A stretch of DNA of 64,000 nucleotides from an uncultured Candidatus Saccharibacteria bacterium (lineage in GTDB: Bacteria > Patescibacteriota > Minisyncoccia > Phycocordibacterales > PALSA-1337), in NCBI GenBank assembly GCA_964532285.1, contig CAZHHB010000002.1, forward strand, positions 36,684 through 100,683, read 5' to 3'. Both the position numbers and the translations under genes were made by a program. Shown here piece by piece: positions 4,124-31,394 of the stretch. The notes beneath the pieces are model-generated. The model saw only the letters and a program-made list of their open reading frames with translations, was not told the DNA's origin and did no database searches. The number at the start of each line of letters is the position of its first letter. The stretch's first letter is position 1.

Positions 4124-4213
4124 CTTCGTCGCTTCGCTCCTCAGGGCCTCCGGCCCAAATACTCAGAGAGAATCAACTCGTGCACTATAACCCGAAAATT
4201 AAACTTATTCAAC

Positions 4214-17880: not shown

Positions 17881-18583
17881 ACTTTTTTATCTCCAAAGCC
17901 TTCTCTGCCGCCATTTGTTCAGCCTCTTGCTTGGAAGCGCCAGCACCCGTGGCGATTTGCACATCACCGAGGAATACTCCGAGAGTGAATTGTTTGTTGT
18001 GATCAGGACCAGTCTCCTTCAATGTTTTGTATGACGGAGTGAGGCCGGCTTTCTCCTGGGCCCTCTCTTGGAAACGACTCTTGGCATCGAGCCAAGATTT
18101 CTTGGCTACAATGTCATCTATGTCTATGACATTCAAAATATGATCTGAGATGAAATTGGCCGAAGCATTATAACCCTGATCCATATAGATAGCGCCGATC
18201 AAGGCTTCAACAGCGTTAGCGAGGATGATAGAACGCGCACGACCAGTGTCTTTAGCCTCGCCTTTGGACATCAGGAGATAACTGTTCAAATCTAGATGTT
18301 CAGCCACCTTGGTCAGACTCACGGTATTCACTATAGCCGAACGAAAGGCTGTCAGCTCCCCTTCTGCTTTCTGTGGATATTTTCTAAATAGAAAACTAGT
18401 CACTACTAACTCCAAAACAGCATCTCCCAAAAACTCCAGACGCTCATTGTGTTCTATGTCTTCACCGCGATTTTCATTCAAAAAAGAACGGTGCGTGCAG
18501 GCATTACGAAGAAGTGCAGGATCATTGAACTGCACATTTATCTTTTTCTGAAAAGTTTCTAGGTTAGTCATATTATCCTTCAC
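17876..18583 (-). CDS. rnc: Ribonuclease III
   Basis: 235 aa; RNase III signature ERLEFLGDAVLELVV plus a C-terminal dsRBD. Confidence 0.9.
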   Translation of the reverse strand: MKDNMTNLETFQKKINVQFNDPALLRNACTHRSFLNENRGEDIEHNERLEFLGDAVLELVVTSFLFRKYPQKAEGELTAFRSAIVNTVSLTKVAEHLDLNSYLLMSKGEAKDTGRARSIILANAVEALIGAIYMDQGYNASANFISDHILNVIDIDDIVAKKSWLDAKSRFQERAQEKAGLTPSYKTLKETGPDHNKQFTLGVFLGDVQIATGAGASKQEAEQMAAEKALEIKKW

Positions 18584-19472
18584 TGAGCATCGTCACGGCC
18601 TTGGTTACAATCGGCAAAATATCATTATAAAAATTCAATTCCAATATATCAACTAGCTTGAACCATTTTGCATCATCCAATCCAGGCTTTTTCGCCAGAT
18701 GCAGATCCCCAAAAGATGATTCGGCCAAATAATAATGTACTTGCTTTCTGATCTTGCCGAGTTCCGGATCATTGGCTATATATTCATTTGTACCGAGGTC
18801 GGCCTTGATAGTTACATCCAACCCTATTTCCTCTTTAACCTTACTCACTGTACCAGTAGTAGGTTCAACACCTTCAGCGATCTTGCCTTTGGATAATGTC
18901 CAATGTCCGAAAATATCGTGGACAAAAGCCATATACATCTCTTCGCCATTTTTAGCATATACGATTGCCCCACCTAGATGTTGGACTGGCATCTGTTCAT
19001 AAGGGACTTCTGCGATCTTTTTCTTTTTGGCTGGAGCGGCGTCTTTGCCTGGTTCACCGAGTTCTTTATAAACTGCCCCTAATACACCGTTGACGAACCT
19101 TCCCGAAGTCTCTCCACCAAAAGTTTTGGCGAGTTCTATAGCTTCGTTGATGGCGACTTTGGCAGGCACTTCATCGCGATCAGAAAACAGGAGTTCATAT
19201 AGACCGAGCCTGAGGACATTTCTGTCGACCGGAGAGATCTTGTCTATCGGCCAATCAGGTGCGGCTTTCTCAATAATTTTATTTAGATCATCTTGTTTGG
19301 CCAGAATACCCTTCATCAAGTCTGCCATAAAGGATACATCAGACATGCCCGGTGCGAATTCTTTTGCATTCCTAGCAACAATAGCGCCAATATCTTTGTC
19401 ATGATGACCACGAGCGTCCCATTCAAATAGGGATTGTAAGACGACTGAGCGTGATAGGTGTCTATTTGCCAT
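18573..19472 (-). CDS. nusB: NusB antitermination factor fused to a C-terminal Nudix-like hydrolase domain
   Basis: 299 aa. The N-terminal ~150 aa are NusB-like (LFEWDARG..., RLGLYELLF). A K/A-rich linker is followed by a Nudix-box-like segment GKIAEGVEPTTGTVSKVKEEIGL. Confidence 0.7.
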   Translation of the reverse strand: MANRHLSRSVVLQSLFEWDARGHHDKDIGAIVARNAKEFAPGMSDVSFMADLMKGILAKQDDLNKIIEKAAPDWPIDKISPVDRNVLRLGLYELLFSDRDEVPAKVAINEAIELAKTFGGETSGRFVNGVLGAVYKELGEPGKDAAPAKKKKIAEVPYEQMPVQHLGGAIVYAKNGEEMYMAFVHDIFGHWTLSKGKIAEGVEPTTGTVSKVKEEIGLDVTIKADLGTNEYIANDPELGKIRKQVHYYLAESSFGDLHLAKKPGLDDAKWFKLVDILELNFYNDILPIVTKAVTMLSEG

Positions 19473-19876: not shown

Positions 19877-19956
19877 GGGTAGAGTATTACATATTTAATA
19901 AAGTTGCGCAAGACCAACATCTCTGTTATTGTTTGTATAGAAAATTTAAAAATATT

Positions 19957-19990
19957 CCCGCCCATAGCTGTTTTGGTAGTTGTTGGAGCA
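19957..19990 (+). pseudogene. Degenerate partial copy of the tRNA-Lys 5' half (pseudo-tRNA fragment)
   Basis: cccgcccatagctgttttggtagttgttggagca aligns with tRNA-Lys 5' tccgcccatagctcagctggtagagcag, which lies 75 bp downstream. Confidence 0.45.
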
Positions 19991-20031
19991 ATGTTCGCAT
20001 ATAGTTCTTTTTAGTTTAATTAATTTTATTT

Positions 20032-20104
20032 CCGCCCATAGCTCAGCTGGTAGAGCAGATCCCTCTTAAGGATAAGGTCGTAGGTTCGATCCCTACTGGG
20101 CGGA
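20032..20104 (+). tRNA. tRNA-Lys (anticodon CUU)
   Basis: CCGCCCATAGCTCAGCTGGTAGAGCAGATCCCTCTTAAGGATAAGGTCGTAGGTTCGATCCCTACTGGGCGGA. Anticodon loop CTCTTAA; T-loop GGTTCGATCC. Confidence 0.85.
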
Positions 20105-20132
20105 CTCGCAAAGTTATAAAGTTATTTGACCC

Positions 20133-20214
20133 GCCGGGGTGGCGAAATTGGTAGACGCACTTGGCTTAGGACCAAGCGGAGTAATCCATGGAGGTTCGAG
20201 TCCTCTCCCCGGCA
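20133..20214 (+). tRNA. tRNA-Leu (anticodon UAG), long variable arm
   Basis: GCCGGGGTGGCGAAATTGGTAGACGCACTTGGCTTAGGACCAAGCGGAGTAATCCATGGAGGTTCGAGTCCTCTCCCCGGCA. Anticodon loop CTTAGGA. Confidence 0.85.
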
Positions 20215-20500
20215 CACATCTCGTATACCACTAGCAAGCCCCCTGCGGGGCTTGCGTCCAAGACTCGAACGGCGGAGCGATGTTTCGCGCACCAGCGCGA
20301 AACCGCGAGCCGGTGGCTAGCCCGAACGAGCGGGTAGCGAGTGAGAGGCGAAGCCGAGTCCTCTGTACCGCGCCTGTAAGGCGAGAGTCCTCTCCCCGGC
20401 ACTTCTACGCTCTTCACTCGCTACGCTCATTCAGAGCTACGAAGTGCAGGCACAATAGAATGTTTTTTATAAGATACCGCATAGATAACTATAGTAGTCA
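20215..20500. other. GC-rich (~65%) structured non-coding segment carrying an 18-bp direct repeat of the tRNA-Leu 3' end (att-like scar)
   Basis: gagtcctctccccggcac occurs at 20189-20206 (within the tRNA) and again at 20385-20402; gagtcctct also occurs at 20359. Several GC hairpins are present (agcaagcccc/ggggcttgc; tttcgcgc/gcgcgaaa). Confidence 0.5.
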
Positions 20501-20537
20501 ATATTGTTTTTTATTTTTGAAATGAGAAAATTATGGC

Positions 20538-21368
20538 ATGGAAAAAGAGAAAAAACATTTAGCTATATTTGAAAGTAAACAGATTCGCCGACACTGGGAT
20601 GATCAGTCGGAGAAGTGGTATTTCTCCGTGGTTGATGTAGTGGGTGTATTATCTGAAAGCACAGACCCGAGGAACTATTGGAAGGTCTTGAAAAACAGGT
20701 TAAATGCGGAAGGTAGTGAGTTGGTTACAAAATGTAACCAACTGAAAATGAAATCATCTGATGATAAGTATTATTTAACTGATGCCGCTGACACCGAAGT
20801 ATTATTACGCCTCATCCAATCAATTCCATCCCCCAACGCCGAACCATTCAAGCTATGGCTTGCCAAGGTCGGCTATGAAAGACTAGAAGAAACCGCTGAT
20901 CCAGAGCTTGCTATCAATCGTGCCCTGAAGACTTATTTGGCAAAGGGCTATTCACCAGCGTGGATAATGCAGAGGTTGAAGAGTATTGAAATTCGCAAGG
21001 AACTTACTGATGAATGGGAGAAGGCAGGGGTTAAAGAGGGTCTAGAATTTGCCATCCTTACAGATGAGATTACCAAAGCATGGACAGGCATGACTACCCG
21101 TGAATACAAAAATCTCAAAGACCTCAAAAAGGAGAATCTGCGTGACAATATGACCAATCTTGAGTTAGTTCTCAATATGTTGGCTGAGACCGCTACTACG
21201 GAGATTTCCAAAAAAGTGGAGCCGAAAGGGTTGGAACCGAGTAAGAAGGTTGCTAAGAAAGGAGGTCAAATTGCCGGAAATGCTCGACGACAAGTGGAAG
21301 CGGAAACTGGAAAACCTGTTATTACTGGTGATAATTGGGAGACTAGAAAGAACAAATCACTCAAATGA
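20538..21368 (+). CDS. Bro-N domain protein, DinD-like (DNA-damage-inducible protein D family)
   Basis: 276 aa. The N-terminal KWYFSVVDVVGVLSESTDPRNYWKVLKNRL is Bro-N-like. The C-terminal region resembles DinD/KilA-C-like antirepressor proteins. Confidence 0.5.
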   Translation: MEKEKKHLAIFESKQIRRHWDDQSEKWYFSVVDVVGVLSESTDPRNYWKVLKNRLNAEGSELVTKCNQLKMKSSDDKYYLTDAADTEVLLRLIQSIPSPNAEPFKLWLAKVGYERLEETADPELAINRALKTYLAKGYSPAWIMQRLKSIEIRKELTDEWEKAGVKEGLEFAILTDEITKAWTGMTTREYKNLKDLKKENLRDNMTNLELVLNMLAETATTEISKKVEPKGLEPSKKVAKKGGQIAGNARRQVEAETGKPVITGDNWETRKNKSLK

Positions 21369-21455
21369 ATATAACCAGGCTATCGAAGATATAATTAAAC
21401 TAATAAAAAAGGCGCACACAGTGAAGTGCGCGCCCTGTGATAAAGAACTTGGAAA

Positions 21456-22553
21456 CTAACCCTTGCCACCGTAACCGCCTGGCGATACCAGCTTAATCCC
21501 TTGGGAGATGATGTGGTACACACCCTCAAGGGTATTCGTAACGGTTGTCTTCGTCTGGGGATCCAGTAATGCGGGAACCTCGATCTTTTTGCCAGTCGCC
21601 TGGTTTTCGAGCACATACGAGGTAGCAGCTTGCCCACCAGAAGTGTATGTGTGTAGAACGACGTTCGTCGTCGGTTTGTCAAATGTGACAATACCCAACG
21701 GGATGTTGCCGTACTCATTCCCCTCACCATCCTTCCAAGTCCAGACAACCATCGTCAAGTCGCTCGTGTTCTTGAAGGAGACGAGGTCACTTGAGTTTTG
21801 CAACAAAACCCTGACCTCCACGGGCGTAAGTGTAACCGGAGAACCGTCCTTGAGTGAGATCGTCTCTTGAAAATACGACCACACATTATCACCGGCCGGC
21901 TTCCATCCCGAGATGGCTATCACCCCGTTGCCGGCGTATTGGGATTGGAAATAAAAACCGTCACTATCCGTCCTCAAGGACACTGGATATGGGTTATTAT
22001 TGTTGGAGTCGCGAACGATGAGTCGCACCCCTCTCAACTGTACGCCGTTGGGCACCGCAATCTTGACTTCCGATGATAGGTATAAACCCACCATCTCTGC
22101 CCAATCTGGCAGTAGCCACCGACCATACTTGTCTTGGTAAGGTTGTGATGTGCTACCGCCACTGAATAGTGGCTGTGGTTTGTTCCCCGACCAGCGAATC
22201 TGATTCCAGTTGTTTGTGCTGTACAGATCCATGCTGATGGAGAAGTAGTCCTTCGGCGAAGTAACCTGCAAAACCCAGCGTTCGTTGACCAGCAGTTCCA
22301 TGATCCCTTCAAGAGTTTTGATCTTGTCGTTGTATTCATAGAACCGCTCGTTGTACCCATTGTCAGCCGTATCGCTGCCACAGGTCACATTCACCGCAAC
22401 CCCCTGCACCTGTTTGAAGGCGTAGGAGATCAGGGCGGTCCGATTGGTAAGCATGGACAAGTCCATGTTCACAGCAGTCTGCGCTTGAGTTTGCACTGGC
22501 ATCCAAATGCCGAGGCACAGGAAACCGACGATTAGTGTGAGTATGTTTTTCAT
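21456..22553 (-). CDS. Secreted hypothetical protein (signal peptide), GC-rich
   Basis: 365 aa; signal peptide MKNILTLIVGFLCLGIWMPVQTQAQT. Elevated GC compared with core genes. Confidence 0.5.
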   Translation of the reverse strand: MKNILTLIVGFLCLGIWMPVQTQAQTAVNMDLSMLTNRTALISYAFKQVQGVAVNVTCGSDTADNGYNERFYEYNDKIKTLEGIMELLVNERWVLQVTSPKDYFSISMDLYSTNNWNQIRWSGNKPQPLFSGGSTSQPYQDKYGRWLLPDWAEMVGLYLSSEVKIAVPNGVQLRGVRLIVRDSNNNNPYPVSLRTDSDGFYFQSQYAGNGVIAISGWKPAGDNVWSYFQETISLKDGSPVTLTPVEVRVLLQNSSDLVSFKNTSDLTMVVWTWKDGEGNEYGNIPLGIVTFDKPTTNVVLHTYTSGGQAATSYVLENQATGKKIEVPALLDPQTKTTVTNTLEGVYHIISQGIKLVSPGGYGGKG

Positions 22554-22607
22554 CTATCGCTCTCTCTTTCTTTGTTTGTTTTTTTGGTTTTTGTTTGTTA
22601 CCGCAGA

Positions 22608-22874
22608 TTACTTCAGCGTGATTTTGGTCACGCGAACCGTGACGTGATTTGTGTCCACAGGCCGTTCGGCACGAACAGTGTTACTGGAGGAGTTCTGCCC
22701 CCGCGAGGGATTCTGCTGATTCCTCACAGTCTCATCCACCTTGGACGCACCGTAAATCAACATACCGACGAAGGCCAAGACGGCGACGATCGAAAAGGCA
22801 CAAATCACCCAGATCACACCCCTTGTCTTCTCTTCCCGTTTTTCCTGCTTCCTGACTGTATTAACCTTTTTCAT
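22608..22874 (-). CDS. Small membrane protein, hypothetical
   Basis: 88 aa; K/R-rich N-terminus then one TM (VIWVICAFSIVAVLAFVGMLIY). Confidence 0.35.
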   Translation of the reverse strand: MKKVNTVRKQEKREEKTRGVIWVICAFSIVAVLAFVGMLIYGASKVDETVRNQQNPSRGQNSSSNTVRAERPVDTNHVTVRVTKITLK

Positions 22875-23160
22875 ATTATTTTGCTTTCAAACTGCGTTTC
22901 TGTCGTTTTTTCTGTCTCCAAATGAAAAGTGGCCCGTATAGCCATATCCATTAACTGGCAAGAGTGTATCAGACTAGTTGGCAGATGTCAATACTTAACT
23001 TGACAAGAACAACTCATAATGCTAACATGCAACCAGTACGCACAGTCTGCTTGAACCTTCAAATGTTCGCTTTGCGGATATGAGATGGGGCGGATTGATA
23101 ACATACCTAGGAAACTAGGATCATAATAAATGGCGATAAGCCATTAGCAGAAAGAACAGT

Positions 23161-23838
23161 ATGAGCACACAAGTAGCAGGAACGGCAACGAGCACGGAAG
23201 GACCAACACTTCTCGTGCTTGAAGAGAAACAGCCGATGACCACCGAAGCCTACGACTGGATGATGAGTATCAACTCTCTTCCTGGGTGCGGACTCTCCCC
23301 AATTCGTTTCATTGGGTTGAAAAACATCGAAAGGCTCTCGGAAGCCCTCGGACACCAGATAACCCTTGAGGAGGCGAAGATACTCGTCCGGTTGGACGGT
23401 GACAAAATGAAGTGCGATGATACTGAGAGGGAGTTCCAACCAATCGCATACTGGCCGTACATCAACGCGGACATGGAGAAGGACCTCGCGTCCGGGAAAA
23501 CACTGGCTGAAATCTCCGTGCCCTTTGGCGGAGCCTTCTTCCTCGAAGGCAAACAGATCTTCGCCTTCTCCGGACCGGTTTACGACAAACTCGGGGCTAG
23601 CTGGATGAATGAAAGCCCGCTTGTCAAAGCGTCAAAAGAAGCCGGCTTCATCAGGAAACTCAAACGCCCGATCTGGGGGAAATGCTTCCAGGTGTTGGCG
23701 GACTATCTGTCTGACGAGGTGGAGAGGAAGAGGCGTCAGCAAGAAAGCCGGGACCGCATCAAAGACAAGTTCTCTGGGAAAAAGCGGGGGCTGAATAAAC
23801 TGAACAATGTTTTTGCCTCGCTGGAACTGGAGGATTAA
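23161..23838 (+). CDS. Hypothetical protein (GC-rich island gene)
   Basis: 225 aa complete ORF with a protein-like composition. The antisense ORFs in this region are R/W/C-rich, which suggests they are artefacts. Confidence 0.4.
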   Translation: MSTQVAGTATSTEGPTLLVLEEKQPMTTEAYDWMMSINSLPGCGLSPIRFIGLKNIERLSEALGHQITLEEAKILVRLDGDKMKCDDTEREFQPIAYWPYINADMEKDLASGKTLAEISVPFGGAFFLEGKQIFAFSGPVYDKLGASWMNESPLVKASKEAGFIRKLKRPIWGKCFQVLADYLSDEVERKRRQQESRDRIKDKFSGKKRGLNKLNNVFASLELED

Positions 23839-24034
23839 CACCCGAGATCAAACAAGATCAAAGAGCCCGCATGTCTACATGCGGGCTCCCTTTTTATATG
23901 TAATATGGAACAAGCCTTGACATCACTATTGTAATGATATATAATGCTCGTCAGTGATTAAAGTTGTTTTGACAACAAATAGAAACGAAAACAAAGACCA
24001 CGAGCGATCGTAGGTCACAACCACAAGGAAACAA

Positions 24035-25534
24035 ATGAAAAGCAACCCAGCGGGATTGCCCGCAGTGAAAGGGTTCAGTCTGAACCATCCGTTTCAGGTG
24101 ACTTGGGGAGAAATTCCCAATACCGAATACATCACGACCGTGATCATCCCTCCCGATGGGAAGAGGATGAAGGGCACCAAGACCAAGAATAATGGTCTTG
24201 ATATCAGGGTCCTGAAAAACATCCCCGGGGAACATATCCTCGAGGTGTTGGCTACTACTCCTGACGGCTCCAGTAAGGGGCCGGCTGGGCGAGTCAGCTT
24301 CAAGATCGTGAATGAAAAAGTGGAGGAGTTCAAGGAACTGCCTCCCGAGGAAGAAGATGAGGACGAGGATCCAAACCAAATCCCCAACTTGTCGGGCGGA
24401 ACGGGATCGACCGCCGGAACTGGAACGGGCACTTCGCCCGCGCCGAATCCGACGCCTGGGTCCGGAGCTGGTCCGGTGAATCGTCCCGCCGGTCCCGTGA
24501 GTCAGCCGACTTCGGGAACCGCGAGTCACGACCTCAGTCTGGCCTTGAACCATCTGGGTGAGGGAATCAAAACCCTGGTCTCTCAGGGTGTGGCAAATAC
24601 AAACTCGCTCCGCACCTTGGCGGAAAGCAACAAGGGATTCGCCGAGGGATTCAGTTCCCTCAGTAGCGAGAATGGACCGCTGGCACAGATGACGCAGCTC
24701 CACGGCAAAACAGCGCTGGCGTTGGATGGGATTCTGATTAAACTCAACCAACTGCCGCCCGCCGCCATTACTACGCCCACCGGTACTGTGGCGACGACCG
24801 GAGTTCAGCAAAAGCCGCAGAAGACCAAAAAGTCCGGAAACGGGAAGTGGTGGCTGCCGGCTGTTGCAATCGTCGCAATGGTTGCGCTGGTTGCATTCGT
24901 TGCCATGAAATCCATGAATAACCTGACCCAAACTCCCCCTCCCGCCCAGTCGATTGAAACCGATAAAGCGGTGATGGATGCCCGAAGAATGGCAGTGGAG
25001 GCCAACAGTAAGGCCAACGAGATGCAGCAGCAGGTGGAAGCCATTCACCGCGAGTTGAACAAACCCGCGCCGGCTCCCATCGCACAGCCGATAACGGTGA
25101 ATGTTGTTGTGACGAACAACAATATCAACAACAACTGTTGTGGGGAAAGGCAAAAGGCGGAAACGCCTGCTGTCCAACCCCCGCCAGTTCCGGCTCCGAC
25201 TGCCCCACCCCAACCGGTGGCACAGGTTCCACAGCAAAAGGGTTATTGGTACCAAGAAGTGGTGCCCGTAGCTCAGACGGTTCAGACTTATGTGGAACCA
25301 CAACAAGTTGTGATCCAGCAGCCTGGATTCAATGGGTATTACTATCAACCGTACGGGCCATCCTGCGGAACTTCCGTTGGATTCCGTGTCGGTATCGGTG
25401 GTGGCTACGGCGGTGGTGGTGGAGGCTATTGTCCTCCGCCGGCACGCGGGGGGTTCTACTCCCCGACACAGTTGAGTCAACCATGTCCACCACAAGGTGG
25501 AGGTGGTCGCGGTGGCCATGGTGGTCGCCGATAA
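24035..25534 (+). CDS. Pro/Gly/Thr-rich low-complexity membrane protein, hypothetical
   Basis: 499 aa with a central TM (WWLPAVAIVAMVALVAFVAM), PAPxP repeats and a Gly-rich C-terminus. The antisense 536-aa ORF has R/W/C-rich composition typical of a GC-rich artefact. Confidence 0.45.
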   Translation: MKSNPAGLPAVKGFSLNHPFQVTWGEIPNTEYITTVIIPPDGKRMKGTKTKNNGLDIRVLKNIPGEHILEVLATTPDGSSKGPAGRVSFKIVNEKVEEFKELPPEEEDEDEDPNQIPNLSGGTGSTAGTGTGTSPAPNPTPGSGAGPVNRPAGPVSQPTSGTASHDLSLALNHLGEGIKTLVSQGVANTNSLRTLAESNKGFAEGFSSLSSENGPLAQMTQLHGKTALALDGILIKLNQLPPAAITTPTGTVATTGVQQKPQKTKKSGNGKWWLPAVAIVAMVALVAFVAMKSMNNLTQTPPPAQSIETDKAVMDARRMAVEANSKANEMQQQVEAIHRELNKPAPAPIAQPITVNVVVTNNNINNNCCGERQKAETPAVQPPPVPAPTAPPQPVAQVPQQKGYWYQEVVPVAQTVQTYVEPQQVVIQQPGFNGYYYQPYGPSCGTSVGFRVGIGGGYGGGGGGYCPPPARGGFYSPTQLSQPCPPQGGGGRGGHGGRR

Positions 25535-25561
25535 ACAATAGTTCCTTGTTCCAACACACAT

Positions 25562-25600
25562 CCCTCGCGCAGACTACAGAGTCTGCCGAGGGTTGTTTTT
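25562..25600 (+). terminator. Terminator-like hairpin gcagact..agtctgc followed by a T-run
   Basis: gcagactacagagtctgc is followed by cgagggttgttttttg. Confidence 0.5.
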
Positions 25601-25809
25601 TGTACTAAAAACTATCACAACACATAAATAAATTTTTGAATACTTGTGCAGAAACTAAAATCTTTGATAAAATTTAAGTATCAGTAGGTAGATTTGCTCA
25701 CGTCAAAGACGAAGGAACTACAATTAAATAATCCGAGGGCGCGCAGAGCCATCACAATCCACTTTTATGAATAAGTGGAAATTTTTTATTAAATTAAATA
25801 AACACGATC

Positions 25810-26799
25810 ATGAATATTCAAAACATAAAACAAAATGGGAATGTCGTCCTTTACACTGACAAACACGGTAATGTTGAATTACGCGCGGACTTAGAAAAAG
25901 ATACGATTTGGGCGACACAGGATCAAATCATGCGTTTGTTCGAGATTGATCAGTCTGTCGTATCACGTCATATAAATAATATAATCAAAGACGGTGAAAT
26001 TGATGGGAAAAGCAATATGCAAAAAATGCATAGTGCTAATTCAGATCGTCCGATAACCCTTTATTCACTTGATATTATATTGTCCGTTGGTTATAGAACC
26101 AATTCAAAGAATGCTATATCTTTCAGAAGATGGGCAACGGGCGTTCTCCGTGACTATCTCACTAAAGGTTACGCTATAAACCAACACAAACTAGCTGAGA
26201 CTCGAGAAAAGTTTACTGACTTACAAAAGGCGGTTGCTCTCATAGAATCGAAGTCACATCGTGAATCATTGAAAGGTAAAGCTGGAGATATCCTCGAGCT
26301 TCTGTCTGCATATTCGAAAACTCTCACTATTCTCGAACAATACGATAACGAGACTCTTACTGATATTAAGGGCAAAAGAAGTGTCTACAAACTAACCTAT
26401 GAAGATAGTTTAGGATTGATCGATGATATAGAAATGGAACTGTCTGTGAAGGGCGAAGCTAATGAACTCTTTGCTGTAGAACGCGGTGGCATGTTTGAAG
26501 GAGTTGTTAAATCTGTCTACCAGACATTTGGCGGCAAAGAGCTCTATCCAACGATAGAAGATAAGGCTGCCAACCTCTTATATTTCGTTATAAAAGATCA
26601 TCCTTTTTCTGATGGCAACAAGCGCATCGGCTCAATGGTGTTCTTGTATTTCCTGCATCGCAACAGATACCTCATCAGACCAAATGGTGAACGAAAGATA
26701 AATGATACCGCAATGGCTGCATTGGCACTCCTCGTGGCCGAGAGTGATCCTAAAGAGAAAGAAACCATAGTCAAATTAACCAAGAACCTAGTACACTGA
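25810..26799 (+). CDS. RhuM-family N-domain fused to Fic/Doc-family domain protein
   Basis: 329 aa. The N-terminus (VLYTDKHGNVELRADLEKDTIWATQDQIMRLFEIDQSVVSRHINNI) resembles RhuM/COG3943. The C-terminus has the Fic/Doc motif HPFSDGNKRIG. Confidence 0.7.
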   Translation: MNIQNIKQNGNVVLYTDKHGNVELRADLEKDTIWATQDQIMRLFEIDQSVVSRHINNIIKDGEIDGKSNMQKMHSANSDRPITLYSLDIILSVGYRTNSKNAISFRRWATGVLRDYLTKGYAINQHKLAETREKFTDLQKAVALIESKSHRESLKGKAGDILELLSAYSKTLTILEQYDNETLTDIKGKRSVYKLTYEDSLGLIDDIEMELSVKGEANELFAVERGGMFEGVVKSVYQTFGGKELYPTIEDKAANLLYFVIKDHPFSDGNKRIGSMVFLYFLHRNRYLIRPNGERKINDTAMAALALLVAESDPKEKETIVKLTKNLVH

Positions 26800-26852
26800 T
26801 TAAACCTATCATCTAAGCCATTCTAAGCCATATTCTCATTATTACATTTCCC

Positions 26853-26881
26853 TTGACATCCACCTCCAAAAATGATACAAT
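26853..26881 (+). promoter_or_regulatory. Sigma70-like promoter (TTGACA, 17-nt spacer, TACAAT)
   Basis: ttgaca at 26853-26858, 17-nt spacer, tacaat at 26876-26881, upstream of the SPFH-like gene. Confidence 0.4.
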
Positions 26882-27009
26882 ACGGGACAGTTAAGTCAGC
26901 AGTGTGATATTCGTGTGAGTGTCCCTGCGTTGACAATTTGAATAGAAAAAACGACAAAAACAATACTTCCCTACAAACGGGAGGTTACAAAATCGGAGGA
27001 AAGAGAGTT

Positions 27010-28041
27010 ATGAGTAAAGAACACGAATCAACACCAAACAAAGAAAGAAGGGGTGAATATCTCTTGGTAGCAATACTGGAGATCGTCATTATTGGGTTGG
27101 TATTGGGCTGGATAGTGAAATTCATACTGAACGAAAGGTATGAAATAGCGACCAGCACCATTTACATCTCGAGCATGATGGTGTGGATCTCTGTAATAGG
27201 TTTTACAGGACTTCACAGGAGGTTCTTCACCTATGTACCAGAAAATTCTGGAGCCGTGATTGTAAACCAACTCCGAACATACGAGGAGCCCAAGAAAGAA
27301 GAAGACCGCACGAAGCTGATGCCGACAAAATCACTTCGCGAAGTTGGTCCTGGTCTCCAAGGTCTTCTCCTATGGGAAAAAGTCGGATGGGTAATAGACC
27401 TCGGAAAACAGATCACCATCAAGAAAGAGGTTACAGCTTATTCAAAAGATAAGATTGAGCTCAAGCTTGATTGGCAAGTGATTCTCACGGCATTACGTGG
27501 ATACTTAGTCAATTTGGTACGACATGACGGTGACACTATAGCGTTATTCTTTGAAGGTGCTTGTCAGGCAAAATTAATTGAACTGATAAGTCATGAATAC
27601 GCCCAGGATGTACCGGCTGAAGCGGGGGCTGAAGCGATTCAGAGTCTATCAGAAAGACTTGTGATCATAAAGGAAGAATTTAATAACTTCCTTGGTGGTC
27701 CAAATGACACAGATGATATTGAGAAACAGTTTGGGACATTCACCAATAGTCCTCAAATCATCAATATTAGGTGGCCGAAAGGATTCACCGAATCAGCCGA
27801 GGCGTTGAGGGTAAACATGAACAATGCCGCAGCGATGACGGCACTAACGAGAGACAACCCTGGACTGAAACCAAACCAGGCCCTCATTGCAGTCTTAACT
27901 GCACAAGGAAAATCGCCTGATGGACTGATTGACTTAAACATCAGCGGTCTGGAAAACCTACACACACTAAACATGGCTGGCAATCCAGCCAATTTCCTAA
28001 AGAAAACTGGAAACAAGAAGAAAGGAGACGGTAATGAGTAA
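27010..28041 (+). CDS. SPFH/band-7-like membrane protein
   Basis: Start at MSKEHE with SD ggaggaaagag; the ORF could extend to 26938. N-terminal TM is followed by GAVIVNQLRTYEEP...GPGLQGL...VIDLGKQITIKKEVTAYSKDKIELKLDWQV, consistent with an SPFH core. Confidence 0.45.
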   Translation: MSKEHESTPNKERRGEYLLVAILEIVIIGLVLGWIVKFILNERYEIATSTIYISSMMVWISVIGFTGLHRRFFTYVPENSGAVIVNQLRTYEEPKKEEDRTKLMPTKSLREVGPGLQGLLLWEKVGWVIDLGKQITIKKEVTAYSKDKIELKLDWQVILTALRGYLVNLVRHDGDTIALFFEGACQAKLIELISHEYAQDVPAEAGAEAIQSLSERLVIIKEEFNNFLGGPNDTDDIEKQFGTFTNSPQIINIRWPKGFTESAEALRVNMNNAAAMTALTRDNPGLKPNQALIAVLTAQGKSPDGLIDLNISGLENLHTLNMAGNPANFLKKTGNKKKGDGNE

Positions 28042-28330
28042 AAAGACTGTGGCTTTCAGCCACGAAGATAGTCCTGGCGAAACAAAGCCTCCAGCTGACA
28101 AACCGGGGAGCCGTACAGACAACACACCAAAAGTTCTTGCAATCATATTGCTTGTCGCCGGAGGTCTGTTGTTGCTGATGATAAATCGGGATAGGGCAAC
28201 AAGCACCGGCAAACCCAAGGGAAATGCTCCGCTTGTCACCTCCTCCCCTCCCCTCATCCAAAGCGGTATCGTTGATATCGTGGTCGGTGAGTGGACAAAG
28301 CCAATTGTGTGCGCCCAGGGGGGGGGGTAA
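28034..28330 (+). CDS. Small membrane protein; ORF ends immediately after a G10 tract (possible frameshifted NfeD-like partner)
   Basis: 98 aa; TM (VLAIILLVAGGLLLLMI). Reading through the G10 tract at 28318-28327 would fuse it to frame 28339-28580. Confidence 0.35.
   Translation: MSKKTVAFSHEDSPGETKPPADKPGSRTDNTPKVLAIILLVAGGLLLLMINRDRATSTGKPKGNAPLVTSSPPLIQSGIVDIVVGEWTKPIVCAQGGG
28318..28327. repeat. Homopolymeric G10 tract
   Basis: cccaGGGGGGGGGGtaa joins two ORFs in different frames. Confidence 0.9.
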
Positions 28331-28607
28331 ACGCATCATGGCTGCGGTAATGACAGAGGGTGTCATGGTAGATGCCCTTCTTGATGGGACTCGGCCTTAT
28401 GTGATAGTGCCCAAAGGCTGGCCTGGGGCCAAACACTTGGAAATCACGAATGGTTTCAACGCCATTCAGCTCCAGGTACGAGCCGGGCAGACAAATAGGC
28501 TCGGTCAGCCGATCACAAGTGCGAAGGCGTCATGGGAAATAGTCCCCCGCAAAGACATTGTCGCTTCCGCTTGGAATTAGTTACTTGGAGCTCATCAGAG
28601 CTCACGC

Positions 28608-28648
28608 AAAACAGGCCACAGAGTAATATCTGCGGCCTGTCTTTTTTT
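28608..28648 (+). terminator. Rho-independent terminator (acaggcc...ggcctgt, T7)
   Basis: acaggccacagagtaatatctgcggcctgt followed by ctttttttg. Confidence 0.6.
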
Positions 28649-28678
28649 GTCCGAGGCCTACCCTTCGGAGGCCTTACA

Positions 28679-28978
28679 TCACAAAGCCTTAACTGTATTT
28701 GAGATGAGATATATTATTCCCCAAGCTGAGACCATGATGAATAAACCAAGCACGCCATACAATATCATCATCTTCCCTTTCGATCTGGCATCCTCATCGC
28801 CACCTTTTATGATCATCTGCAAAACTCCGTAAACAAAGACCACAACCGCTACACCGAACAGGAGTCCCAGGACTGGATAGACGATGTTTGAAATGATTGG
28901 ACTTAGAGTATTACCAAGAACCGTGGCATCTACTGCCGCATTAGCTTGCAGGATTGGCTCTGATAATAGAGAAAACAT
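28679..28978 (-). CDS. Small secreted two-TM protein, paralog 1 of 6 (VirB2/TrbC-pilin-like topology)
   Basis: 99 aa; hydrophobic N-terminus, two TM helices separated by the charged loop KGGDEDARSKGK. Confidence 0.45.
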   Translation of the reverse strand: MFSLLSEPILQANAAVDATVLGNTLSPIISNIVYPVLGLLFGVAVVVFVYGVLQMIIKGGDEDARSKGKMMILYGVLGLFIMVSAWGIIYLISNTVKAL

Positions 28979-28984
28979 TGATAA

Positions 28985-29380
28985 TTACTGAACGATAGGT
29001 ACTTGTCTGGCTGGTATACCATCTATCTGTTCATTATTCGTGAAGTTTGGAATCTTTTTGTCAGTTGGTTGTGTCCCAAATGTATTAGTCAAGATATTCA
29101 CCAAACCCCAGATAGATACAATGATGAATAGACCGACTATGCCCCAGAGGATATTCATACCGGCGGCTCCACGACCCTCTTCTCCCTTGCCCTTTATGAG
29201 ATACATCACAACATTCCATACGATGAATAGAACAGCGGCGGCGACTAAGATGTACACAATCGTACTACCAATACCCAGGATCTTGGTACTCAAGGAGTTG
29301 ACATCCACGACTCTGGCGGTTGTTTGAGCAAAAGCCATAGACGGAGCAATAGTTACGACAAAAGCAATGATTTTTTTCAT
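28985..29380 (-). CDS. Small secreted two-TM protein, paralog 2 of 6 (VirB2/TrbC-pilin-like)
   Basis: Signal peptide MKKIIAFVVTIAPSMAFAQTT; loop KGKGEEGRGAAG between two TMs. About 128 nt are identical to paralog 3. Confidence 0.5.
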   Translation of the reverse strand: MKKIIAFVVTIAPSMAFAQTTARVVDVNSLSTKILGIGSTIVYILVAAAVLFIVWNVVMYLIKGKGEEGRGAAGMNILWGIVGLFIIVSIWGLVNILTNTFGTQPTDKKIPNFTNNEQIDGIPARQVPIVQ

Positions 29381-29484
29381 ATTATTATATAAACTTATAA
29401 ATCTGATTAACACCTCTAATTATACCCCATAAGATAGAAAGTACGGCAAGAGTATCTGTGGATTAGTATTATACTCTGTAAGAT

Positions 29485-29901
29485 CTAATCTGGAGTCAGA
29501 GGACCCGAATTGTTACTGGTAAAATCAGTACTAGGGAAACGGTCTCTGGGAACATTATTATTTGTCCCAAATGTATTAGTCAAGATATTCACCAAACCCC
29601 AGATAGATACAATGATGAATAGACCGACTATGCCCCAGAGGATATTCATACCGGCGGCTCCACGACCCTCTTCTCCCTTGCCCTTGATAAGATAGAAGAC
29701 TACATTGTATACAATAAATACAACCGCCAAGACCACGAGAATATAGATGACAACATCGGCAATACCGATGAATTTCGTCTTTAAATCCTCGAGATTGTTG
29801 ATCTGCTTCAATGGGCCCTGAACTTGAGTCGTTGCCTGAGCAAATGAGATCAATGGTATAAAAACCAGAACGGACAATATCGCTAATAGTTTATTTTTCA
29901 T
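29485..29901 (-). CDS. Small secreted two-TM protein, paralog 3 of 6 (VirB2/TrbC-pilin-like)
   Basis: Start at MKNKLLAILSVLVFIPLISFAQATT. The C-terminal half is identical to paralog 2 (…KGKGEEGRGAAGMNILWGIVGLFIIVSIWGLVNILTNTFGT). Confidence 0.5.
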   Translation of the reverse strand: MKNKLLAILSVLVFIPLISFAQATTQVQGPLKQINNLEDLKTKFIGIADVVIYILVVLAVVFIVYNVVFYLIKGKGEEGRGAAGMNILWGIVGLFIIVSIWGLVNILTNTFGTNNNVPRDRFPSTDFTSNNSGPLTPD

Positions 29902-29918
29902 ACGGATGATTGTTATTA

Positions 29919-30284
29919 TTAATTTGGAAAAATATTCTTCAAATTCGCCCAACTACCTGGAGTATTAGGACCGAGATTAAATGTCGCGGTAACGATATTC
30001 ACTAGACCCCACATTGATAATATGACGAAGAATCCAATCAGACTCCACATCAGATACTTGCCAGCCTCAGTACGACCATCACCACCTTCATTCGGCATGA
30101 TGAAATATTTTACGATATAAAATACAAACATCAACACTGCCACACCCATAAGAAGTAGTAGAGCCTGATTCAAATAACCAGCGATAGATCCTATGAGATC
30201 GGATAATTTCTTGGTCGTAGCCGCAAAAGAAATGAGTGGAGATGCAAGCGTTATCGCGGGAATGATGTATTTTATTTTTTTCAT
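29919..30284 (-). CDS. Small secreted two-TM protein, paralog 4 of 6 (VirB2/TrbC-pilin-like)
   Basis: 121 aa; signal peptide MKKIKYIIPAITLASPLISFAATT; loop PNEGGDGRTEAG between TMs. Confidence 0.5.
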   Translation of the reverse strand: MKKIKYIIPAITLASPLISFAATTKKLSDLIGSIAGYLNQALLLLMGVAVLMFVFYIVKYFIMPNEGGDGRTEAGKYLMWSLIGFFVILSMWGLVNIVTATFNLGPNTPGSWANLKNIFPN

Positions 30285-30308
30285 ATAATAAATTGGTTAT
30301 CTATTTAT

Positions 30309-30788
30309 CTATCTTAAAGCATCTCTAGAGCCCTGCATAACTTGCGGACTGACTGTGCCGGTAGCTTCAATGGTATTTATAATAACTTCCACCATCACGC
30401 GTGCACCTATGACCACAGCCACACCTATGGCTAGCCACATAAGTCTCTTGTGCTGTTCCGCGATCTTGGCGGCATTACCTTGTGCTGCATACATGATGTA
30501 CATGAAGCCTACATAGATGAACATCAGTACCGCTATCAGGATGACGACATAACTGAATATCTCTACAGCACTCTTCACAAGACCACCAACAGAATCAACT
30601 TTCAATGGGTTCTGTAAAGTGAAGGTTTGTTGGCTATTCGTATTTCCGCCAATAGTTCCACCATTAGGAGTATTGCCCCCAATCGTACCCGGACCTTCTT
30701 CTATCGCAAAAACAGGACTTGCCATAGAAACCGAGACCGCAAGAACCATCACGATAGCTAAAATAGTTTTTTTATTGAAATATTTCAT
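30309..30788 (-). CDS. Small secreted two-TM protein, paralog 5 of 6 (VirB2/TrbC-pilin-like)
   Basis: 159 aa; signal peptide ...SMASPVFAIEE, Gly-rich GTIGGNT repeats, two C-terminal TMs. Confidence 0.45.
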   Translation of the reverse strand: MKYFNKKTILAIVMVLAVSVSMASPVFAIEEGPGTIGGNTPNGGTIGGNTNSQQTFTLQNPLKVDSVGGLVKSAVEIFSYVVILIAVLMFIYVGFMYIMYAAQGNAAKIAEQHKRLMWLAIGVAVVIGARVMVEVIINTIEATGTVSPQVMQGSRDALR

Positions 30789-30796
30789 ATTTTTAT

Positions 30797-31315
30797 TTAC
30801 TTACCCAGAAGCGCTCCGAATCCCGATTTGCCTGTAAGCCAACTCAATACTTGGAAAACGATGAGCCAAGCTGACAGCATTATTATAAACCCTATGAGCA
30901 CTTTTTTGAAAACACTGTGGGCCTGAGTCAACTTGCCTGGATCTCCAGAGCCCGTGATGTATAGGAATCCCGCGTATGAGAAACCGAGTATAGCTACAAG
31001 AACACCAACGACAATAGCGATATTTATCAGATGTTGAACCTGCATCATCAGACCGTTGAAGTCACATGGAATGTAATCGTCTTTAAGTGGATATTTGTAT
31101 GAACCATTTAATTTCTCTGATGAGAATTCCTTGGTTACTGGATTATAATGCCCCGCACCATCTGGCCCATCGCAAACTACCAACTTGAAGCCTTTGTCGC
31201 TAATATCCGTCGTCGGCAACTGATCATTCAATGTCCTTGTTGTCTGTGCGTAAACATTTACGACTGGTGTCATCAATACAAACACACCTAGAACAGAAAT
31301 AAATATTCTCTGCAT
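30797..31315 (-). CDS. Small secreted two-TM protein, paralog 6 of 6 (VirB2/TrbC-pilin-like)
   Basis: Start at MQRIFISVLGVFVLMTPVVNVYAQTT; two C-terminal TMs with loop GSGDPGKLTQ. The ORF could extend to 31393. Confidence 0.45.
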   Translation of the reverse strand: MQRIFISVLGVFVLMTPVVNVYAQTTRTLNDQLPTTDISDKGFKLVVCDGPDGAGHYNPVTKEFSSEKLNGSYKYPLKDDYIPCDFNGLMMQVQHLINIAIVVGVLVAILGFSYAGFLYITGSGDPGKLTQAHSVFKKVLIGFIIMLSAWLIVFQVLSWLTGKSGFGALLGK

Positions 31316-31394
31316 CAAAACTTTATAACTTTCTATCCTTCGAGACTGAGAGTCTCTCAGGACCTGATCGGCTTTATAACTTTTTAACTTCATT

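Follow-up and report, generated by a model that had tools for sequence, protein, structure and literature searches.

What does a short repeat of a tRNA 3' end delimit when variable, partly GC-rich genes lie behind it? This question is raised by a 64,000-nucleotide stretch of genomic DNA from an uncultured Candidatus Saccharibacteria bacterium (contig CAZHHB010000002.1, positions 36,684 to 100,683; hereafter the window), in which the last 18 nt of a tRNA-Leu gene recur shortly downstream of the gene and upstream of a gene block of 8.5 kb. tRNA 3' ends are classic landing sites of integrative elements, and the accepted picture combines a recombinase gene with a fixed copy of the attachment (att) site. 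The sequence-only reading of the locus had followed this picture and proposed an integrase-type insertion island at the tRNA. Based on our data, we lean towards a different answer, namely that the 18-bp repeat marks a small, structured, non-autonomous insertion element that targets tRNA genes, and not the 8.5-kb gene block. The tRNA pair and the repeat comprise the following features:

20032..20105, plus strand: tRNA-Lys(CTT) (ARAGORN, Rfam)
20133..20215, plus strand: tRNA-Leu(TAG) with the T-loop TTCGAGT (ARAGORN, Rfam)
20198-20215, plus strand: repeat copy 1, the last 18 nt of tRNA-Leu, from G57 to 1 base past the discriminator
20385..20402, plus strand: repeat copy 2 of the tRNA-Leu 3' end, which forms the 3' end of the element

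Searching the 64-kb window for the 18-mer GAGTCCTCTCCCCGGCAC returned exactly these two matches (20198-20215 and 20385-20402) with up to three mismatches allowed; the chance expectation is 0.01, and two matches were reached in none of 100 shuffles. The repeat of the tRNA-Leu 3' end is thus real, with a start-to-start spacing of 187 bp instead of the 180 bp given before, which leaves 169 bp between the copies. This insert is indeed the GC-rich, hairpin-forming stretch that had been described: its GC content is 64.5% compared to 43.5% for the window, and its folding energy beats that of shuffled sequences (z = -3.3). Besides, no third copy of the tRNA-Leu end of at least 12 nt was found in the window or at kilobase distance in related loci, and both copies lie upstream of every gene in the proposed island. 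Therefore, the repeat delimits a unit of 187 bp and not an island of 8.5 kb, and as both copies flank just 169 bp and a distal copy is missing, the layout is not that of attL-island-attR. The island model is already contradicted by these positions. Since an independent European Nucleotide Archive (ENA) assembly holds the identical element together with the Bro-N gene of the block, the arrangement is not an assembly artefact.

Comparable units are present elsewhere behind tRNA genes of Paceibacteria, and the family to which the insert belongs (here called type A) was found at about ten related or metagenomic loci. Our comparison set consists of 80 related loci collected via the NusB-NUDIX protein of the window, a fusion protein encoded at 18573-19472 and kept in about 600 Paceibacteria-like genomes according to a scan. 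The window belongs to a genome of the Paceibacteria (Parcubacteria, CPR) with a GC content of about 43%, whose nearest public relatives are metagenome-assembled genomes labelled Paceibacterota, Patescibacteria or "Saccharibacteria" (at most 85% identity in NusB-NUDIX). We examined the sequence behind tRNA-Leu(tag) in every relative that keeps the order L32 - tRNA-Lys - tRNA-Leu, with these contents per locus:

L009: a tandem of three units of 142 nt each
L003: two units that belong to a different type (type C)
L004: one unit, and also a type B unit with a 33-nt repeat behind tRNA-Lys
L006: a single unit, with L006's variant of the acceptor sequence in its terminal copy
L011: only the beginning of a unit, as the contig ends there
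L118 / L119: a decayed remnant
L010: empty

Three of the relatives' tRNA-Leu units have the exact strings GGACTCGAAAAGTCTGAGCATAT and ATGCGAAGACTGTAC in common. Using an exact 20-mer from the first of these core strings in a single contig scan, we retrieved seven metagenome loci, in which the core lies 3' of tRNA-Ala(tgc), Leu(gag), Leu(tag), Ile(tat) and, in a truncated form, Arg(tcg). Intact units end in a copy of the local tRNA, reaching from the T-loop G57 (sometimes T54) to 1-4 nt past the discriminator, and the T-loop TTCGAGTCC is common to all target tRNAs. Among loci that were not chosen by the motif, the repeat is present at five of eight tRNAs with this T-loop compared to one of 23 others, most of the five being one orthologous locus. 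Units are found in single, tandem (2-3 copies), truncated and recombined states, tandem units are identical to one another, and all tRNA-linked cases lie on the tRNA strand directly downstream of the tRNA. An exception regarding the matched end is L086 (2185-2477), where a tandem pair of units with terminal copies of the Leu type adjoins tRNA-Val(gac) and shares with it solely the junction ..GCAC/AAAA; this suggests that the tRNA-Leu was deleted or that the array moved.

Using a covariance model, we found three shorter relatives away from tRNAs in 1.36 Mb of related loci, and one copy in the window. Two of the three lie behind protein-gene terminators (L037 19940-20024 and L025 15104-15208), the third within a duplication of the rnhB 5' end (L037 7729-7813). 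In addition, a canonical terminator separates tRNA and unit in L085. As some elements are thus located behind terminators or split from the tRNA by one, an obligatory co-transcription is argued against. Around the rnhB case (L037 7530-7893), two short A-like units lie between a displaced pseudo rnhB 5' end (GTG KKRITHIVGVDEAG...) and the intact gene start, and the identity block TTGGAGTCGATGAGGC is common to both rnhB ends, so that the duplication of tRNA 3' ends has a counterpart at a gene 5' end here. A duplication pair of the same general kind is found in the window, where the previously noticed pseudo-tRNA-Lys fragment is confirmed upstream of the tRNA pair as a partial duplicate of 20020-20053:

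19946..19979, plus strand: pseudo-tRNA-Lys 5' fragment with 12 nt of upstream flank and the first ~22 nt of the tRNA (76% identity, family D1, identity block CCGCCCATAGCT)
19985..19998, plus strand: GGAGCAATGTTCGC, located between the pseudo-fragment and tRNA-Lys and possibly left over from a B-type module (weak by-eye resemblance to GGAGCGATGTTTCGC at 20274-20288)

Several side observations concern the surroundings of the units. Compared to the window, both tRNAs of L004 and the tRNA-Leu alone of L006 (3.3 kb away) are inverted along with their elements, so rearrangements do occur around these tRNAs. In L085 (~1164-1190), a Gp49/HigB-like toxin gene located 170 bp 3' of the A unit has 14 identical nt, GACTCGAAAAGTCT, in common with the invariant core; no other such case exists outside the elements in 1.4 Mb. 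In the window, a GC- and purine-rich GGGCCGGAGGCCCTGAGGAGCGAAGCGACGAAG lies just 5' of tRNA-Glu (4124-4165, minus strand); it resembles the loops of the GAGCGAAGCGA type in the elements, and its GGGCC repeats the 5' end of the tRNA. Outside the comparison set, IMG/VR gave no match for the 18-mer, the core 20-mer or a degenerate mini-core pattern. A 15-mer hit 28 IMG/VR loci, all by chance, as the covariance model found nothing in them. GenBank phages match the tRNA part alone and not the element. Antisense translations of the three tandem units, compared with a protein collection in case copies had been mis-called as open reading frames (ORFs), had no match.

Concerning the structure, an alignment of eight units gives the order of type A as hairpin hp1, helix P1, GAAA, helix P2, GUAC, hairpin hp3 and the terminal tRNA copy, within a unit length of 120-250 bp and with no gene inside. 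P1 consists of GGACUC paired with GAGUCC in the terminal tRNA copy, P2 is interrupted by a symmetric internal loop (UGA/GAA) and carries hp2, a hairpin that varies, and the loop of hp3 is usually UGUAA; the consensus helices are recovered by RNAalifold. Standard pairs are formed in 96% of the alignment cells and 18 of the 36 pairs change on both sides, values reached by none of 500 shuffles, and controls with slid partners pair to 29-44%. No pair shows a one-sided (G-U) change, and there are no G-U intermediates among the 46 double changes. Conservation is far stronger in the unit core, an invariant three-way junction, than in the stems. We also counted G-U pairs as a discriminator between RNA and DNA, which does not decide the matter, as the sense and antisense values are 3.9% and 3.1% (8.5% in tRNAs).

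With Rfam 15 as RNA family reference, the gathering threshold yielded tRNAs alone in the window, in 20216-20402 and in the homologous units. The family RF01699 (Clostridiales-1, gathering score 48 bits) reached 17.4 and 12.2 bits on L089, with a full-length alignment and a shared UGAGCAU...AUGCGAA motif, and gave no match on L083, L085, L086, L087 or the window; being below threshold on one locus and not reproduced on four others, membership in this family was rejected, and the resemblance serves as a lead at most. The two have in common the closing stem, a long hairpin, a hairpin with UGAGCAU/AUGCGAA internal loop and then one with a GUA loop, and they differ in the host group and in the tRNA link, which is not reported for Clostridiales-1, an RNA of unknown function. 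None of the self-cleaving ribozyme families of Rfam matched the units. A hammerhead ribozyme was dismissed because the core reads CUGAGCA without G8-A9 (CUGAUGA would be needed) and the flanking strands pair with each other, which is a forbidden topology. TIGR arrays and type III toxin-antitoxin RNA repeats were discarded by inspection, since the tandem units have no variable spacers and no matching protein adjoins them.

The relation between unit and target goes beyond the terminal copy. Two subtypes of type A can be distinguished: subtype 1 (window copy, L004, L006, L083, L088), in which pairing with the target is limited to the 6-bp GGACUC/GAGUCC, and subtype 2 (L009, L085, L086, L087, L089), which like type C (L003) has an additional, Watson-Crick inverted copy of tRNA nt 57-74 that hp1 interrupts. 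In minimum free energy folds, the subtype-2 and type C units are closed, an acceptor-like and a T-like stem taking up the whole terminal copy, and the long hairpin stem thereby reproduces the double-stranded 3' end of the tRNA gene. The arms of three units read as follows:

Leu-tag unit: GUGCCGG...GGAGAGGACUC
Leu-gag unit: GUGGCGCGG...GAGAGGACUC
Ile unit: ACACGCG...GAGGGACUC

For all three, the own tRNA type gives the best pairing among six types, and the duplex of the body with its own repeat is stronger than with shuffled repeats (z = -5.5 for Leu-tag, -5.1 for Leu-gag and -5.4 for Ile). Since the arms have A at the place of a wobble G in the 5' strand of the T-stem, they complement the 3' strand and do not copy the 5' strand. 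The Leu unit of L087 and the Ile unit of L089 have a near-identical hp2 and a similar hp1, so the three target-related segments must have been exchanged jointly and recently. L083, a subtype-1 unit of the Ala type, has its hp2 in common with the subtype-2 unit of L085 (Leu-gag), which shows mosaicism.

Such mosaicism is also seen in the window copy itself, which spans 187 bp including the terminal tRNA-end copy (20216-20402) and is non-coding and hairpin-rich. It consists of the following parts, the last of which lies past the element:

20216..20233, plus strand: A-element leader of subtype 1 (..TATACCACTA), with conservation in L004 and L083
20234..20255, plus strand: hairpin hp1 of the A element, GCAAGCCCC CTGC GGGGCTTGC
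20256..20269, plus strand: GTCCAAGACTCGAA, with the P1 5' strand GACTC (complement of GAGTC in the tRNA copy) and the start of the junction
20270..20355, plus strand: B-type module in place of the P2 domain of the A element, with the hairpin GTTTCGCGC ACCA GCGCGAAAC
20356..20364, plus strand: incomplete third copy, GAGTCCTCT, of the tRNA segment (nt 57-65)
20365-20368, plus strand: invariant GTAC of the 3' part of the A element
20369-20384, plus strand: hairpin hp3, CGCC TGTAA GGCG
20405..20424, plus strand: 3' arm of a 20-nt inverted repeat (pair I7), whose partner at 20334-20353 lies inside the B module

The A core is interrupted after GAA (within GTCCAAGACTCGAA), and the window copy is a composite in which the P2 domain has been swapped for a type B module. 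This module is 81% identical to part of the tRNA-Lys element of L004 and related to a module that precedes a mini-unit in L037. The pairing of 20334-20353 with 20405-20424 encloses hp3 and repeat copy 2, and the covariance model recognises the window copy (20231-20402) with 58 bits (E 5e-10). In L088 (~1834-1960), the A unit behind tRNA-Arg(tcg) ends within P2 after GAGCATAT and continues into sequence with a gene for an HTH-like (helix-turn-helix) protein of 227 aa. As this unit and the window copy are both broken in P2, this helix may be a hot spot of breakage.

How such units could spread can be sketched from these features. The units would be mobile, or at minimum exchanged horizontally, and would not bring a catalyst of their own; instead, a trans-acting recombinase or nuclease would work in the segment of tRNA genes from the T-loop to the 3' end. 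An insertion would restore an intact tRNA and leave a second copy of its 3' end, at which a further unit could land, and this would account for the tandem arrays. The internal complement, GGACUC or its longer form in subtype 2, may read the target by pairing or mimic the att duplex, and the latter would resemble the folded single-stranded attP of phages of the CTX type.

A DNA-level insertion element fits the fast turnover at one orthologous locus, where none, one, two or three units of differing types, truncated or chimeric, are found, the duplication of gene 5' ends in two cases (pseudo-tRNA-Lys and rnhB), the copies behind terminators and the absence of G-U intermediates. Several points weigh against it. 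No recombinase, transposase or reverse transcriptase adjoins any copy, and the repeat length varies (18-24 nt in type A, 33 nt in type B), which makes a fixed staggered cut unlikely. One core with differing, locally matched tRNA ends is hard to fit to a classical attP with its fixed copy. The invariant junction, the GAAA, the tandem G-A internal loop and the conserved hairpin loops resemble an RNA tertiary motif. The window copy has no inverted copy and a disrupted core and is perhaps a dead relic; moreover, the invariance of the 20-mer in the metagenome loci is given by construction, as it served as bait, and most of the unbiased cases come from one orthologous tRNA-Leu locus, which limits their independence. 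The RNA-like features lead to an alternative that we take seriously and still judge doubtful, in which each unit would be the gene of a structured, tRNA-like non-coding RNA (ncRNA), transcribed with or next to the tRNA. The terminal tRNA copy and the internal complements would form a minihelix of acceptor and T-stem, RNase P, RNase Z and the CCA-adding enzyme would release unit-length RNAs, and the junction would bind a protein or be catalytic. This is in line with the strict tRNA orientation of the units immediately 3' of the tRNA, with the strong covariation around an invariant junction with GAAA and UGA/GAA loop and conserved hairpin loops, with the closed coaxial acceptor-like and T-like stem of subtype 2 and with the weak full-length alignment of L089 to Clostridiales-1 (UGAGCAU...AUGCGAA in both); GC-rich islands within AT-richer genomes are, besides, a classic ncRNA signal. 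However, Rfam thresholds are not reached (17 bits vs 48 for Clostridiales-1, which is absent from the other copies), a terminator stands between tRNA and unit in L085 and the copies of L037 and L025 follow terminators of protein genes. The rapid turnover at the orthologous locus is unlike a housekeeping RNA, subtype 1 including the window copy has no acceptor mimic, and G-U intermediates number zero among 46 double changes. The insertion element and the ncRNA are not mutually exclusive.

Much less probable is the island in its original form, an integrase-bearing element in the tRNA-Leu 3' end that covered 20133-28650 and lost its integrase, leaving the 18-mer pair as att remains. The stretch from the T-loop to the tRNA 3' end is reportedly the classical att geometry of tyrosine integrases in tRNA genes, which suits this idea, as do the variability of the region among relatives, the three genes with high GC content at third codon positions (GC3) and the defence-type cargo discussed below. 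Opposed to it are two copies only 187 bp apart and 5' of all genes, no distal copy in the window or in relatives, no integrase by Pfam, PHROGs and NCBIfam, a typical GC3 of the Bro-N, RhuM-Fic and SPFH genes and a last 1.7 kb of conserved backbone. Furthermore, the repeat with its GC-rich insert also occurs behind tRNAs without any following island, for instance in L089. We give hardly any credence to a local accident without a family behind it, be it slippage during replication, a template switch at GC-rich hairpins or an artefact of assembly: contigs of other assemblies do break at these tRNAs, indicating a region that is hard to assemble, yet the independent ENA assembly has the identical sequence, and homologous units with compensatory changes exist at about ten loci and six tRNA species.

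The preferred reading, a tRNA-targeting insertion element, can be set beside several known systems. Att duplications of tyrosine integrases and cis-mobilizable elements (CIMEs) likewise have a repeat from the T-loop to or past the tRNA 3' end, leave the tRNA intact, accrete in tandem and have no recombinase within the element. In contrast to these, our units measure 120-250 bp, contain no gene and carry varying, locally matched tRNA ends on one core, their stems covary around an invariant junction and one subtype has an inverted target copy. In integrative mobile elements exploiting Xer (IMEX, CTX phage), a single-stranded DNA hairpin mimics dif and is integrated by the host XerCD. The likeness lies in the predicted hairpin stem that reproduces the target duplex, the regeneration of the target, the arrays, the specific orientation and the missing recombinase. 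This target-duplex stem is present in subtype-2 and type C units, the window copy and the other subtype-1 units being limited to GGACUC/GAGUCC and thus devoid of most of the mimic. The target of our units is a tRNA gene and not dif, they are about 50 times smaller, and a single-stranded intermediate or a role of Xer would be hypothetical for them.

MITEs (miniature inverted-repeat transposable elements), repetitive extragenic palindromic (REP) and palindrome-associated (PATE) repeats are also small, non-coding, hairpin-rich, intergenic, mosaic, often located behind terminators and dependent on an enzyme in trans. Our units differ from them by a core that is more conserved than the stems and a duplication that is long and variable (18-33 nt), comprises a functional gene end and has its orientation fixed by the tRNA. 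The constant terminal inverted repeats and short fixed duplication of a MITE are missing, as the unit ends are not inverted repeats of each other, save for the target-derived copy of subtype 2. Casposons and other Cas1-type elements share the insertion at a tRNA 3' end, the duplicated terminal segment and the tandem arrays; they have a fixed duplication of 14-15 bp, terminal inverted repeats, cas1 and polB, none of which was seen in the units. On the RNA side, the subtype-2 units resemble tRNA-like RNAs, such as the tRNA-like domain of tmRNA, YrlA and mascRNA, in having a predicted acceptor-like stem stacked on a T-like stem and a tRNA 3' end, and are unlike them in the three-way junction that replaces the T-loop, a paired discriminator and the absence of D-loop/T-loop elements. 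Matches to YrlA and mascRNA are due to the tRNA itself. Literature searches turned up no description of an equivalent element; the family is apparently undescribed so far, and this would be its first sighting.

Taken further, the units could be regarded as a scaffold with an invariant core of ~110 nt that copies its target, direct and as Watson-Crick inverted tRNA nt 57-74, around itself, and hence as either a new mechanism of recombination at tRNA genes in bacteria of the candidate phyla radiation (CPR) or a new class of tRNA-mimicking RNA matured by tRNA processing. We put this forward tentatively, as a possibility with more against it than for it. The exchangeable arms that bear the target can be likened to the pairing of exon- and intron-binding sites (EBS/IBS) of group II introns, to the guide sequences of IS608 and to bridge RNAs.

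If the repeat does not bracket the genes, the nature of the block at 20.5-28.6 kb has to be judged separately. Its main features are:

20538..21368, plus strand: Bro-N/DinD-like protein, 276 aa (Pfam Bro-N, weak NCBIfam DinD; GC3 0.42)
21456..22553, minus strand: 365-aa protein whose N-terminus has a signal-like hydrophobic segment (no family match; GC3 0.64)
23161..23838, plus strand: 225-aa protein without Pfam match, from an uncharacterised family with 82 representative clusters (GC3 0.66)
24035..25534, plus strand: 499-aa Pro/Gly/Thr-rich single-pass membrane protein (GC3 0.60)
25810..26799, plus strand: RhuM + Fic/Doc protein, 329 aa (GC3 0.38)
26938..28041, plus strand: SPFH-fold membrane protein, 367 aa (ten homologues; no Pfam match, Band_7 included)
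28034..28580, plus strand: small membrane-protein gene paired with the SPFH gene, divided into ORFs of 98 aa and 118 aa (G10 tract at 28318-28327)
28608..28647, plus strand: terminator-like hairpin and T-run at the end of the plus-strand gene run (read from the sequence, unlisted by the consensus scan)

Most of what had been read from the letters holds here, including the Bro-N/DinD-like, RhuM+Fic and SPFH-like assignments, the small membrane-protein ORF broken at a G10 tract and the terminator at 28608, which is visible even though the scan did not list it. The absence of an integrase is likewise borne out for the eight main ORFs of the block, none of which matched an integrase family in Pfam, PHROGs or NCBIfam. 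The raised GC content is confirmed as well, with 51.8% over 21.4-25.6 kb against 43.5% for the window, followed by 42.8% over 25.6-28.65 kb. However, the block is a patchwork of accessory genes dropped onto a conserved backbone and not one acquired unit. An atypical GC3 is found in three of seven genes (the 365-aa, 225-aa and 499-aa genes) and a typical one in the Bro-N, RhuM-Fic and SPFH genes, measured against a baseline of the window genes with a mean of 0.436 and a standard deviation of 0.07. As the GC content of close relatives ranges from 35% to 56%, a relative with higher GC is a plausible donor of the high-GC3 genes.

The stretch between the tRNAs and the pilin array differs in length (2.1 to 8.8 kb) and in content in every close relative. 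The 3' flank of tRNA-Leu is therefore a hot spot, and this part of the acquisition idea stands, together with the four accessory genes missing at this site in relatives (Bro-N, the 365-aa gene, RhuM-Fic and, for the most part, the 225-aa gene). The SPFH gene and its partner do not belong to it: in relatives they lie directly before the T4SS-pilin array (type IV secretion system), the SBP, methyltransferase and GyrA genes, as in the window, and this conserved synteny identifies 26.9-28.6 kb as ancestral backbone. The array consists of six T4SS_pilin (VirB2/TrbC-like) paralogues (28679-31393) with the SPFH pair 5' and the SBP gene 3', a layout kept in relatives. Each lineage shows a replacement of the 440-620-aa gene that precedes the SPFH gene.

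Among the accessory genes, the Bro-N protein has a full-length match to PADLOC PDC-S13 (3.8e-133) and the RhuM-Fic protein to PDC-S23 (1.5e-114), both of them candidate families with a putative role in single-gene phage defence. The Bro-N protein is also 81% identical to the product of a gene that follows tRNA-Leu and an A unit in L087, where its other neighbours are topA and infA-rpmJ-rpsM. RhuM-Fic is missing from the equivalent gap in L118 and L119 and is a separate insertion between the 499-aa and SPFH genes. The 499-aa gene is probably backbone, its residues 262-406 aligning weakly (26%, E 0.002) to a 498-aa gene that precedes the SPFH gene at the equivalent place in L118/L119. For the 225-aa protein, a homologue of 33% identity occupies the same position in L003. 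Its possible identity as a gp32-like single-strand-binding protein was abandoned, as a PDB match with E 0.046 was lost with a profile of 44 sequences and Pfam gave none. Two predictions inside the 499-aa gene were set aside as well: a tRNA-Asn(att) at 25398-25473 (ARAGORN) has no Rfam support and is likely a false positive, and a 536-aa ORF on the minus strand (23951-25561) is the antisense shadow of this GC-rich, low-complexity gene.

The 367-aa protein has an SPFH fold with a membrane anchor according to an alignment-based AlphaFold2 (AF2) model (pLDDT 73.5), which Foldseek matched in the PDB to prohibitin, stomatin, HflK/C and QmcA (E 2.5e-11, probability 1.0); this model was used, as a single-sequence prediction (pLDDT 36) was unusable. 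The pair resembles operons of the SPFH/NfeD type in the fold, the N-terminal membrane anchor and the overlapping small membrane-protein gene 3' of it, and differs from them in the missing Pfam Band_7 match and the fixed position beside the T4SS-pilin array; the NfeD likeness of the partner is one of layout. The 98-aa ORF aligns at 35% to the orthologous partner gene of relatives, which encodes 155-170 aa and overlaps the SPFH gene, and G9 instead of G10 would fuse the two ORFs of the window into one single-pass membrane protein of 181 aa. The split could reflect slipped-strand phase variation of a surface-locus gene, or an error of sequencing or assembly. In consequence, the proposed toxin and membrane-stress module dissolves into unrelated parts, with two defence candidates and an SPFH pair that belongs with the pilin locus.

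Taken together, the boundaries of the supposed island are corrected, and an SPFH fold and two families of defence candidates are assigned to its genes. Where a short repeat of a tRNA end is found near variable genes, it should be checked what the repeat brackets before boundaries of an island are called. As an island this locus is ordinary; as a member of a family of tRNA-capping elements it deserves follow-up, since a gene-less unit with a core conserved to the base is found behind at least five tRNA species, each time with the matching end and sometimes with this end in both orientations. If the units are RNA, they would represent a new family of conserved RNAs making use of a tRNA-like end. 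If they are mobile, their arms would encode the target and point to an enzyme acting in trans in Patescibacteria, which would be of interest for site-specific and programmable insertion.

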